Source: Podarcis vaucheri (taxonomy: Eukaryota). From it: 64,000 nucleotides of DNA. Below the pieces are notes generated by a model. The model was not told where the DNA came from, ran no database searches, and worked only from the letters and a program-made list of their open reading frames with translations. Made by a program: the position numbers and the translations under genes. Below are positions 12,549 to 18,339 of the stretch, piece by piece. Positions within the stretch are counted from its first letter, which is position 1. Every line of letters starts with the position of its first letter. Location: NCBI GenBank assembly GCA_965113315.1, contig OZ220367.1, one strand, 5' to 3'.

Positions 12549-12902
12549 AGGGAGGCTTGGGCGGTGGTGAGTTGGGGCGGCACCTTCCCATTTCATATCA
12601 GGTGATGAAACAGGATGGCACCATCCTTGCCCGTCCCTCAAAAATGCCATCTAAGAAGGGGAAAGGAATTTCTGCAGCAGGGCACTTTCCCTCTCCTCCC
12701 CTTCTTGAATGTACACTCTGTAAAATGGAAGACCCTGCAGTATGAGGAGACGAGTCTTATAGCACAGTCAACCCAAGTGGAGGTGACGATCTTCTTGTCA
12801 TTGCCCCAGTCCCATCCTTGAAACTACAGTCTGTAAAGAGGAAAGAAGGAGACACTCTAAGCAGAACAGGAGGAGAGAACTGCTTTCTACTGAGCTCATT
12901 CA

Positions 12903-15541
12903 CAGGGCCGTCTTAAGCATATGTGGCGCTGGGGTGCAAAGATCCACCCAGCGCCCCTAGGTTGCCCAGAATGTAAGTTACTCTTGTTCTCAGTAAACAA
13001 AAACATATTATCAACATATACAAGGAGAAAAGTTGTTTTCCTTCATTTGCAAGGAATCATACAAAACAAAGTGGCACTAATAAAGAAAAGTTCCAGGGTG
13101 GCAACAGAAAGCAAACTGAAAATGCTTTTGCAGTTCATCGGAACTATCCAGCAATATCAAGTTATAGGAAAACTGGCGCTATTAACAATAACCCTAGTTG
13201 GGGACTTCTGGGTTAGCGCCTCCGGCAATGGCGGATTTCCTCTGATTGGGAGGAATCCGCTCCGTGGAAATCAGGGTCTGGACTGCCACGGCGAGGCGGA
13301 GACCCACTAAAAACCGCAGGCGGGAGAAGCCTGTGGATGTGGGATTCGGCTGGCACCTTTTGCACCTCCCCTACTCACGGGGAAACCCGGTTTTGGGGAT
13401 CCGGAGCGATGTGGGGTGAGCGGCACGGTGCTTCGAATCGACTGCTTCTTTCACGGAGTGAAGCCGCATTGCTGTTGCCGGAGAGCGCTGGCTTTTTCCT
13501 GTGGACAATTGGACTCTAAACAACTACCCGTGAGTAGAACGGAAAATTGGATCTCTAAACATCTTAATTTGGCACCGAAACGGGAAGGTTTCAAACAGGA
13601 AGTCCGCCTTCCTCTTTTGTAAATAGTTTGAAGCAAAATCGTTGCAAGCTAAAGTCTGGAAAGTCTTTTGTAAAGGATTAAATCTCCATCGGTTAAAATT
13701 ACTAAACCTCCCCTTGGAAGCAGGAGAAGAGGGGGGAAATTTTAGATAGCCTAAGCCTGCAGGAGAGAGAGTGAAGAAAGATAAATTACCACCGTTTTGA
13801 ACCTGGGAATGGGCTGCCAGTAAGATCGACGTTTTGGGAAAGTCCATTGACTGTGAATAAAATGTATGTTGACAGATAGTTAAACAAGAGAAATATATTG
13901 TTTCCATTGTTTCCTTTTGCACTTAAAAAGGAGCAAAAAAGTAACTGAAAATTGAGACTAACTTTGTTGCTGGATCTGCGCTTAAAAGGACGGATACAAA
14001 TAGAAATTGTTTCCCCTAGAGGGAGCTTTTGAAACTGTTGCAGGAGTGGAGCTGGGGAATTTTCCAGCTGCAGAGATTAAAGACCGTGAGAATCAGAGAT
14101 TGACCTTGGAAAAGAATGTTGACAGAAGAAGCCTTAGTGATTGCATTTTGCAAGACAAGTGCTTTATTGGAACAGCTTCATGAGAAGATGGATGTGAGGA
14201 TTATTAAAATTGACAATTTGGGACAAAAAATGACTGATTTGGGACAAAAAGTGAATACCTACACAGAAACTACTCAGGAATTGATTCAGGAATCTGTTTT
14301 GACATGGCAAGCTGTGGAGAAGACGAAGGAGAAAGTTGTTGTTGAACCTCAAGTAATTCAAGTGGAGAGAGCCCCGGCCTTACAGAGGCAATTTGATGAA
14401 CATAAGCTGTTGCCTTTTACGATTGAATCTAGAGAAAGCCAGATTTGGTGGGATGGAGCCCTACTTGGATTGGAGAAGGAAGTTGGATAGATCCCCTTAT
14501 GCAGGGATGTTCTGGCTTTTGGGATCTGGATTTGGGTCAAGGGGAGATTGGAGTTGTGGGGGCCTTTAGCTTCGGGGGGACTCTGAAACATGCTCTGAAA
14601 TATCTTTTGGACTCTAGTTCTGACTATGGAAAATGGGCTGACCTGTCAAGAAGGAATAAAGACATTGTTAGGTTGGAGTTTCCCCAAGATCTACTCCTCG
14701 GTGCCAAAGGAAGGAAATTAAGAACAAGATCAGCAGAAGATAAAGTAAAGTGCATGTATAAATATGAAGAAGATCTGCAGAAGGGACATGGAAAAGAGTT
14801 AAGAGCCTCGGACAGAAGATCACCAGGTTGATGGACCATATGAAATTGATAGAAAGGACTGACAGAATCCGAGACCAGGGAGAAGAGACGGTGGAAGAAG
14901 ATTGGGAAAAAAGTTTTTTAAAAAAATTATTTAGAGAAATATTGTAAAATTAATGAGTGTTAGAAAAATGTTGGAATGAAATCATACGGCTTTAGTAGAA
15001 ATGTTATAAGGAGTTAAGTATAAATAAGTTTTAGGGTTTTAATGGTAAGATAAGGTTAAAATAAATTAAGATAATTAAATGACAGAAAACAGTGAAAGAT
15101 GGAAAGGATTTGCTGAAATAATTAATAACTAGAACACAAAAAGGGAGGTGTGAGGAGGTCGATGAAACAAGTTAATGAAAGATAAAGATATGGAAATATT
15201 GGATGTGTTTTTAATTGTTTTCGCTTTTGCTTTTGTTTTGATGTATTGTGTTTTTTGTTTTTTTATATGTACTCTAATGTATTGATTTGTATTGTTTACT
15301 TTTTCTCTATCTTTTTTACTTCTTTCTGTAATTCTTAAACTTTTAATAAATATTATTTTTAAAAAACAAACAAACAAACAAACAAACAAACAGTAACCCT
15401 AGTTGGTTAATTGATTTGCAAACTTTCATGCACATGACGTCTGATGCTAATTCACCCCTGCCCAAAGAGTTAAATGAGATTCAGGTGAGGGTCATATACC
15501 TTGTCAATCCCAGCAGGTATATAACAGGAAGACCCGGCCTG
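12903..15541. mobile_element. hAT-type non-autonomous element (about 435 bp) split by the half-L1-like insertion
   Basis: Imperfect TIRs CAGGGCCGTCTT / AAGACCCGGCCTG and an 8-bp TSD CTCATTCA (12895-12902) / CCCATTCA (15542-15549). Confidence 0.65.
13200..15388 (+). mobile_element. Full-length non-autonomous L1-derived retroelement (half-L1-like: 5' UTR, single ORF, L1 3' tail)
   Basis: 16-bp TSD AACA(A/G)TAACCCTAGTT at 13184-13199 and 15389-15404. It starts with GGGGACTTC and a CpG-rich 5' region. The ORF at 14116-14831 has one frameshift and a coiled-coil-like N-terminus. It is followed by an L1 ORF2-terminal remnant (..TDRIRDQGEETVEEDWEK), AATAAA near 15345 and an A/(CAAA)n tail. There is no endonuclease or RT. 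Confidence 0.85.
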
Positions 15542-18339
15542 CCCATTCAGAATATATTTTTTATTGTTTTTCTCCTCTAAAAACTAGGTGTGTCTTTTGG
15601 AGCGAAAAATATGGTAATTTAGGCACTAAATGTTATAGATTGATAGATACTATTACTATACTAATATCCTTGATTAAGAAAAAGTTCCTTGTATTAAAGA
15701 GCTTCAGTGAAATGACATGATTTTGGAGAGAAAGTAGAAGAGGAGTCGTTATCACAGATAGAGATAGTAATTGCCATTTGGGCCAATTTGAGTATGGCAA
15801 GATCTTAAGCAGGATAAGTGCCATGCGCAGTCATAGCAAACGATTTCTCTAGAAAGATCTGGCATTCCTGAGCAATTGTTGGCTAGGATTCTGATCTCAC
15901 ACATACAGAGAGATGGAATTTTGCTAAAGGAAATTTGCTTTCAGATGTCGAGATCATTTGAGGAGAAGTTATACAGAACCTGGAAGAGATTATTTTTCCT
16001 GCTTACACAGCCAACAGCACTGCCACAGAATGCAGCTTTAGGACATCTAGACTAGAGAACTTTCCCAAATAGCCAAATGTTGCTTCTATGAATGCTTCAA
16101 AACTTTATGGTGATGCTGTCATCTGTTTCCAGGTAATGCATGCTTATTGTGCTACATGTCTATCTCACCTTTCCTTCACGTAGCTCAAAGCAGCATTCTG
16201 GGCTCCACACCTCCATCTTATCATCAGGACAATCCCATGAGGCAGAATGAGTGAACCAAAGCCATGCAGTGAGCTTCATGGCCAACTGAGGCTTTTTGAA
16301 CCCAGATCTCCCTCATCCTACTTTCTACCCCTGATGCCTTAAGAACCCTCATTTAGCATTGCCCACTCTCATCTTTGACTGAATCCCTTTAAAAATAACA
16401 GATAACTTACCTAGTACTGAATGGAACTCAGTTTTTGCAGTCTTCATGTTTTATTCAATTTTTTGTAATTTGGAGGGTAGGGGCTTCAGAAGGTACAAAA
16501 GTGTTTTCTTAGGAGAGAAGAGGGAAGCTATCTCTGTTGCCTTGGCTATCGAACCATCTTTGATTTGGATTTCGCCACTTTTTTGGGGTGTGTGTGCTCC
16601 CCTGGGTGTGCAAAAACTTCTGGTTTGTTCATTGGGGGCTCTTTTTGATACCAATGTGGTTTTCATGGGACCATTGAAGTTGTTATTAGGATGATGCTGA
16701 AAAATATGACAAGGAGATAAAAGTAAACTTCATCTCTGGGGTGAATTCATGTTTTCAAAATGATGCTGTTCTTGCCTTTTAAAAGGACTTGAACTTAAAT
16801 TGTTTTAATAGAGCACAACTGAGGGAACTCTCCGACTCAGGAGACTGCACCAAATGGAACATTGGCTGGTCTTTTCTGAAGTATATCCATTTATAGCATT
16901 CCCACTACAAGTTAGTTGTTTACATGAAAATACTTTCAAATAACCAGAGGTGTGAATATTTACTCCTGTCAAAGTGACTATGGCTGTTTCCAGGCAAAGC
17001 TACTGAACCTTTAAAGGAATTGCACTGAATTTTCTCTTTAGGAATAAGGATAAAGACAGCAACTGAAAGGGGTAAGTACCAGAAAAAGAAAACTGGGTTA
17101 ATGGATGGACTGGTAAGATGGGAGTCAGAAGCACCCTTTTAGAAAAATATCTTAGAAGGTTGTTAATTTTTGTGAATATGTCTACTGGCATAAGCAAAAG
17201 CGGCAAAAAGGGTGTTTGGGAGGAAGGGTAGGATATAAACAATCATTTACATGCTTACATGCAATTTAAACATGAAGCTTGATTTTTTAAATAAAAAATC
17301 CACACTAAATAGGACAGACCTATGTTTGAGTGTCAGTGAAACAGAAATGGGAGTGGCTTAGTCATGAACAGATCAAATGATTACCGGTCCCTCAGCTCTG
17401 TGGTAAACCCCACACTGAGTAGTAGGTGATTGATCTACATCAGTGGTTCCCAACCAGGAGGAGAGACAGGTGATATGGGGTTATCGCAGGGGCCACAAAA
17501 AGTTATCCCACCCCTTCATTTAAAGGAGGGAGGAGGCTTCTTCAAAGAGCACCTTAAGACAGTCTCCCTGTTCCTGGTAAGTTCCTCTGGGGGCTGTGAT
17601 GTAGCCCTGCCCCATCTCAGGCAGACCGGACACTTCTTGTGGGCATGTGGAGTTGGGAAAATGCGAAGGTGCAGGGCCCTGGCAGCAGCAGCTGTAGCAG
17701 CTTGTTCACCCTCTTCACTGCTCGGACACACTTTTGTGGAGCTTGAGAATAACAGGTTAGCCTGAAGGTGCTACTTCCAAAGGGATTTGCTGCTTAGAGA
17801 TCTTTCTGCCTCACCATTCACTCCAGCTGTATCTCTAAAGCTTTTAATTTATTTGTAAAAAAGTAGAAATTCTCACCAAACCGCTGCAGTGTACCACCGA
17901 CTTTGATTGCAAGAATAGTTTTTTTTAAAAAAAAAAAAAAAATAAAGCAACAACAATCCCAAAGCTCTATTGTCAGAATTCATAATACAGGTTAGGCTCT
18001 CTTTAAAAAGGCTTCCATAATTCAAAACACTTAAATGCACAGGTTTTTGTGCATCTGCTTTTATACTCCATTCTCTCTTCTTCCCATTAGTAAGTTTGTT
18101 CTTTTTTTGTCCTTGGATTTTTAAAAGCCTGCCCTTATTCCCTTTCTCTGCCCCACCCCCTCCGAATGCTGGAACACTTGAAGACTCTTTTGTGATGCTA
18201 TAAAACTTGTCAGGTATTTCCAGCTTTAATGAACATTTTCGCCTTTTCACCTTTTGCCTTCCATTCTTCAGAACTTTTCCCTGTGTGAGAAAGGGACTTT
18301 ACTAAAGGAGACAGAAAGTCAATAGGAAGTTGTCCTTTC

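Follow-up and report, generated by a model that had tools for sequence, protein, structure and literature searches.

Half-L1-type elements without a complete RRM derived from one L1 family in the lizard Podarcis vaucheri

Half-L1 (HAL1) elements are non-autonomous L1 derivatives that were reportedly described by Smit in 1999 and by Bao and Jurka in 2010. The usual reading of why a half-L1 keeps ORF1 is that its RNA-chaperone activity is needed. R2 SIDE elements and SINE-like LINE deletions keep RNA signals and are not known to encode a protein. Like the element reported here, they are non-autonomous and arose from a LINE by internal deletion (PMC3414825). In mammals, HAL1 encodes ORF1p only, has several independent origins and long kept its coding capacity, as the cited passages describe (PMC5753468, PMC3627910, PMC4859970), and HAL1b ORF1p is drawn with a coiled coil (CC), an RRM plus the C-terminal domain (CTD) in the relevant part of PMC7586669. 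Truncated human L1 ORF1p offers a further comparison, in which coiled-coil fragments without the full RRM form heterocomplexes with full-length ORF1p; as far as the cited sections of that work go, these proteins come from dead L1 loci or constructs and not from mobile families under selection (PMC5605252).

Here, we describe a 2.2-kb L1 derivative, flanked by target site duplications (TSDs) and tailed, at 13200..15388 of the window, which is the whole 64,000-nt stretch of P. vaucheri DNA that was analysed (all features lie on the plus strand). Its family is referred to as family X, and two further short L1 derivatives as families Y and Z. As the earlier note had proposed, the element is HAL1-like: it is derived from L1 without the endonuclease or reverse transcriptase, its copies have TSDs and tails, and an ORF1-derived ORF is its only gene and has been maintained, so that it shares with HAL1 the restriction to ORF1, the several origins and the long-kept coding capacity. 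We regard it as very probable that the element is a half-L1-type non-autonomous L1 derivative whose open frame is selected in cis. Family X differs from HAL1 in its host, a lizard rather than a mammal, and from HAL1b with its complete RRM in that 42 RRM codons, about half of the RRM, and the N-terminal region are deleted from ORF1p; in addition, the sister families Y and Z join the coiled coil in frame to ORF2 fragments. Unlike R2 SIDE and SINE-like LINE deletions, family X keeps an ORF. No published lizard half-L1 and no RRM-less half-L1 was found in the literature, which agrees with the suggestion of an undescribed lizard family; this result is provisional, with Dfam/Repbase and the original HAL1 description outside the comparison, and repeat libraries of lacertid genomes may already list families X, Y and Z.

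The element has both of the natural ends that had been noticed. It starts with GGGGACTTC at position 13200, at the head of a CpG-rich 5′ UTR (CpG o/e 0.89 and GC 0.54 in 13200-13650, the first 450 nt), and closes with an L1-derived 3′ UTR (14948..15360) that contains AATAAA at 15345-15350 and is followed by an A-rich (AAAC)n tail (15361..15388). The 16-bp TSD of the earlier note is present at 13184..13199, and its 3′ copy at 15389..15404 has one mismatch that the note had left unmentioned. The L1-derived 5′ UTR (13200..14115) is about 79% identical to that of the parent L1 and is presumed, by analogy with L1 biology, to act as an internal Pol II promoter. The single ORF, from the ATG at 14116 to the TGA at 14831, encodes a trimmed L1 ORF1p of 238 aa in intact sister copies and carries the one frameshift already recognised, with one base absent at about 14479. 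Because this missing base breaks the ORF, the window copy is a dead element; in a comparison of 35 copies, no other has this frameshift. Directly behind the ORF lie the last ~40 codons of L1 ORF2 (14827..14947), which are out of frame and now non-coding. The ORF is therefore joined to the ORF2 end at the DNA level, as claimed, and not as a protein fusion in the window family. Short repeats are found on either side of the element (12828-13055 and 15450-15677), with separate RNA-read peaks there. Within the element, raw RNA reads of a related species are thin, fall on both strands at mostly 88-95% identity, and peak in the 3′ part common to L1, a pattern that speaks neither for expression nor for silence.

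A Podarcis raffonei record led to the parent L1 family in the window genome (loci L100-L105), and parent fragments are also present in Podarcis records P0031 and P0033. The parent, whose copies are 86.5% alike on average, has a full ORF1p of about 390-400 aa plus ORF2, and is the source of the 5′ UTR, ORF1 and 3′ end of the element. The two are colinear, with 69-83% nucleotide identity along the length, and this comparison confirms that the endonuclease and reverse transcriptase are absent, ORF2 being deleted except for its last ~40 codons. By this alignment, the element protein is derived by three cuts from the ORF1p of a resident L1 family: at the N-terminal region, at 42 RRM codons and at the tail. 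The first deletion (161 nt, junction at 14108..14109) removes the parent ORF1 start codon and N-terminal region, and the parent Met52 is now the start. The second (126 nt, junction at 14575..14576) removes the second half of the RRM in frame, so that a remnant of the first half (14441..14575) lies between the coiled-coil region (14116..14440) and the CTD (14576..14826). The third begins where the CTD ends and stops short of the last ~40 ORF2 codons (14826/14827), with about 3.7 kb of parent copy L104 missing, and the stop codon of the family X ORF comes from the out-of-frame ORF2 sequence that follows. Splicing was considered as the source of the deletions and rejected, with no GT-AG pairs at the six junctions in parent copy L104.

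A DNA search of the element's own genome matched 40 of 40 scored candidates (40 scored of 7,455), most of them near full length at 92-96% identity, and copies of the window subfamily are on average 95.3% alike. Of the 30 copies examined, which were picked by DNA, 25 are flanked by a direct repeat of their own of at least 12 nt (in one case a mere A/T run), and 14 have an intact ORF (225-238 aa). The TSDs are about 13-20 bp, mostly with a purine at the start, and the copies have A-rich tails; with the active L1 families of the genome, these features are an indirect hint at mobilisation by L1 ORF2p in trans. When 20 extra copies were picked by the 3′ end alone, 14 reached the 5′ end within 50 nt. 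The ORF1-ORF2 junction region is the same in all 98 family loci examined; the many TSD-flanked copies with a common junction that the note had proposed to look for thus exist, and a post-insertion deletion of one L1 at this locus does not account for the junction. The common junction, the TSDs and the many intact ORFs bear out the proposal that the element moved in its 2.2-kb form as a multi-copy family. Since protein searches with three different lineages gave at least 150 matches each, family X has at least several hundred copies.

Relatives of family X are annotated as hypothetical proteins in Podarcis lilfordi, and one lineage in the window genome is up to 96% identical to such a protein. 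In Podarcis muralis, gene models P0027, P0013 and P0014 combine the family X ORF with an olfactory receptor, and a TRIM39-like protein with L1 ORF1; these models are probably annotation chimeras, exaptation being the less probable alternative. Family copies nested inside other family copies or parent L1 copies were seen at L076, L101 and L133. Lineage-E copies and parent-L1 ORF1 fragments recur at 9-20 kb spacing near contig ends (G000:C25:107.80-107.91 Mb, C10:134.93-135.03 Mb and the starts of C1, C17, C19 and C26), which suggests a subtelomeric repeat unit carrying both. G000 contig C41 shows strong enrichment for old L1 copies and identical duplicated blocks and may be a sex chromosome that does not recombine.

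Out of 72 loci, 57 full-length copies were aligned, and indels common to at least two of them were counted. In the ORF, all 11 such indels are multiples of 3; in the 5′ UTR this holds for 4 of 44, and in the 3′ part for 16 of 49 (ORF versus 5′ UTR, Fisher p=1e-8; 11/11 by chance, ~6e-6). The ORF also stays open across lineages, some with as little as 25% identity to the parent. Both results contradict the view that the ORF is a neutral relic yet to decay in the source copies; although the dN/dS intervals given below include 1, as this view would have it, we consider it extremely improbable. Among 50 DNA-picked copies, no disablement marks a clade, and all are private save two: three copies have a stop of CpG type in codon 191, and a +1 frameshift is found within an A run at codon 37. 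The latter occurs in 6 of 52 copies, which are scattered on the tree with no other site in common, and a minor frameshifted source copy may lie behind it. Many loci beyond L030 were picked by protein search, which biases them toward open frames. Since disablements are private or scattered among the DNA-picked copies, open frames seem to be needed in the source copies, that is, in cis.

Selection on residues was gauged between pairs of natural copies, by their distances, and site by site, by counts, rather than along individual branches. In 48 of 51 intact ORFs (L041, L046 and L079 were left out), N/S was 1.67 for fixed and 2.50 for private changes (ratio 0.67, p=0.049); by domain, the ratio was 0.59 in the coiled coil, 0.52 in the CTD and 1.25 in the RRM remnant, none with p<0.05 alone, and amino-acid constraint was not detected in the remnant. 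Net dN/dS between subfamilies, with the observed transition bias, ranged from 0.35 to 1.01, and 13 of 14 intervals include 1. Taken together, these results show that frame conservation is strong and amino-acid constraint is weak. Where identity to the parent has fallen to 25-30%, the N-terminal heptad helix (first ~50 residues) and the last ten residues are still present. Prolines were gained in the second half of the coiled-coil region. The C-terminal decapeptide and stop (14799..14831) end in R-x-x-G / P-G, and the shared changes in them are mostly synonymous: across 98 copies, no shared variant at R, A, D, R, P or G changes the residue; of the other four positions, two are free to vary and two have undergone some replacement.

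The C-terminal half had been thought not to resemble the RRM and CTD of L1 ORF1p; our results differ here, in that a recognisable CTD follows an RRM of which half is deleted. One lizard L1 ORF1p shares 43% identity over 63 residues, another matches the whole protein at E=3e-31 with a single internal gap, and identity to the parent is 56%. A profile comparison with L1 ORF1p had also been proposed. The lizard ORF1p profile aligns to human ORF1p 2ykp/2yko (E=8e-4), and the deleted RRM stretch aligns with the human β2-β3 loop, β3 and α2, including T213-P214 and R215, the human residue numbering offset being taken from this same motif. In the human protein, T213-P214 is a phosphorylation site required for retrotransposition and R215 forms a conserved salt bridge, according to the cited part of PMC6428221. 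The element protein has probably lost the ability to grip RNA with its RRM. In Pfam scans, both the element protein and lizard L1 ORF1p had generic coiled-coil matches only, a PDB sequence search with the element protein gave no match, and a Transposase_22 profile search of the genome gave nothing, its own control making that search uninformative. AlphaFold2 on a 15-sequence alignment of the element protein reached a pLDDT of 35. Retrotrans_gag, the best feature match of a Podarcis homologue, scored 0.86, below the 0.9 bar, and was rejected.

Trimming has gone further in some lineages, again in frame: 33 further RRM codons are lost in lineages B and C, and about 17 CTD codons in lineages D and E. 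This bears on whether the trimmed protein could be an ordinary cis-acting ORF1p that binds RNA via the CTD and the remaining basic residues. In favour of such a protein, the CTD is intact in lineages A-C and under some constraint, but every lineage has lost half of the RRM fold, the CTD is shortened in D and E and missing from families Y and Z, and 10 of 11 family X representatives are net acidic, versus +5 for the matching parent region; we therefore judge an ordinary ORF1p to be very unlikely. Heptad periodicity in residues 4-52 was significant (p<0.05) in 9 of 11 lineage representatives, and none was found in the next 50 residues. The test is crude, because the signal of lineage B is not significant (p=0.15 and 0.60) and the parent itself gives p=0.11 in residues 4-52 (0.01 in the next 50). 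The ORF1p of the L1 family at L080, L090 and L093 has a heptad duplication at the same place as element lineages A1 and D, for which convergence and matching to a helper are the suggested alternatives.

The parent search also gave the two independent short families, each with its own TSDs. Family Y has 7 loci of about 2.2 kb (L106-L112, e.g. G000:C41:18965200-18970200) with copies 89-97% alike, and its ORF consists of the N-terminal region and the coiled coil joined in frame to the C-terminal part of ORF2. Family Z has 7 loci of about 2.4 kb (L113-L119, e.g. G000:C42:10500400-10505400), and in its ORF, a piece of mid-ORF2 follows in frame after the coiled coil and the beginning of the RRM; Podarcis raffonei record P0031 looks like an earlier form of family Z with the N-terminal region still present. 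Shared ORF1 indels are in frame in 3 of 3 cases in each family, compared with 1 of 14 (Y) and 2 of 19 (Z) in the UTR. All three families retain the coiled coil and lose the RRM. Judged from their sequences, families X, Y and Z are a half-L1 variant without a complete RRM, and three independent families from one parent.

The main rival explanation is that translation itself is selected, in that a frame of 200-300 codons stabilises an intronless RNA by escape from nonsense-mediated decay or keeps the RNA on ribosomes for helper ORF2p. The protein would then be a by-product, perhaps removed via a C-terminal glycine degron. Strong conservation of the frame with weak amino-acid constraint is what this predicts, the frames of families Y and Z run on into arbitrary ORF2 pieces, and the coiled coil may survive merely as the first stretch behind the start codon. 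Likewise, the R-x-x-G and P-G end of family X fits the Cul2 APPBP2 and KLHDC10 degron patterns as given in the cited part of PMC7458402, a match that we treat as a lead. However, a by-product would not be expected to keep its heptads in lineages D and E at 25-47% identity to the parent, to show only synonymous shared changes at six of its last ten codons, or to have a nonsynonymous deficit that differs between domains. Selection on translation itself is thus possible, and in our view somewhat unlikely.

To model a role of the coiled coil, residues 1-108 of an intact copy were combined in ESMFold2 with two coiled coils of lizard L1 ORF1p as a heterotrimer. The score was 0.65, versus 0.00 for the best of 3 controls, which were unrelated proteins not picked as coiled coils; at least 81% of contacts agree between runs, partner pLDDT is at least 70, and residues 7-74 of the intact copy lie in the predicted trimer. 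Among microbial pairs, the mark used was reached by 51 of 78 solved and 2 of 108 mismatched ones; among eukaryotic pairs, 71 of 105 solved and 2 of 126 unrelated ones reached it. Since the partner is homologous to a family with a solved trimer, a pass is expected here and may reflect likeness more than binding. The element protein may co-assemble with L1 ORF1p, as the earlier note had suggested, with this predicted heterotrimer as the support; the competition with L1 that it had offered as the other option fits the cis-type selection pattern less well. In such competition, the protein would be a dominant-negative subunit that poisons helper ORF1p trimers in trans, and so frees ORF2p or damps L1 for the host. 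The predicted heterotrimer would be compatible with this, and L1 is suppressed in trans by truncated human ORF1p whose coiled coil is intact, an effect that inclusion of the RRM weakens; in the same cited sections, however, suppression needed the N-terminus, without which the human coiled coil did not suppress, and family X lacks the N-terminal region (PMC5605252). Moreover, a benefit in trans should let ORF-dead subfamilies spread, and there are none among the 50 DNA-picked copies. We consider a trans competitor improbable.

The explanation that we prefer, to which we give about an even chance, is that the trimmed ORF1p is kept open, its coiled coil docks the element's own RNA on helper ORF1p, and helper ORF2p copies that RNA. 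Co-translational assembly of N-terminal coiled coils and mRNA tethering by a paused nascent chain are known. The element RNA would be transcribed from the L1 promoter, and the N-terminal coiled coil of the nascent protein would dock on the ORF1p of a complete L1 to form a heterotrimer. With an RRM that probably cannot hold RNA, the protein would most simply be linked to its own RNA as a nascent chain on the ribosome, and such co-translational docking would account for selection in cis in the absence of an RRM. Its middle part would serve as a spacer, and its last residues would pause the ribosome or mark the released protein for destruction. Helper ORF2p, engaged through the poly(A) tail, would then copy the RNA. 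Docking by the coiled coil as the reason the frame is kept has about even odds. In its favour, truncated human ORF1p and ORF1p from different RNAs form heterocomplexes via the coiled coil (PMC5605252, cited sections), and Pol II transcripts require ORF1p for trans mobilisation, as stated in the cited part of PMC2666806.

The identity of the helper bears on docking. No full-length ORF2 frame was found among parent matches of at least 90% (150 scored), versus more than 30 among 150 matches of another L1 family, and active L1 families are present in the window genome. The youngest family X subfamilies seem to post-date the parent, and would therefore have needed a more distant helper; they probably used an L1 other than the parent. 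According to the cited sections of PMC5605252, heterotrimers in human cells form in a species-specific manner, and L1 is suppressed there by truncated ORF1p. Species specificity of this kind, together with a helper more distant than the parent, counts against docking.

A bolder version, which we hold to be rather unlikely, is that the lizard L1 has repeatedly spawned "grappling hook" parasites, in which an ORF1p coiled coil without RNA binding, still on the ribosome, would form a trimer with helper ORF1p and so drag its RNA into the helper particle, and a conserved C-terminal peptide would pause the ribosome or later destroy the protein. If true, the grappling hook would be a protein-based counterpart of the route by which Alu RNA reaches ORF2p. 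The three families account for several Podarcis annotations as "hypothetical proteins" or chimeric gene models, and they extend half-L1 biology to squamates. Families X, Y and Z kept the frame and the coiled coil and lost the RRM, which separates the role of the coiled coil from RNA binding, and they are a natural deletion series for the standard retrotransposition assay.
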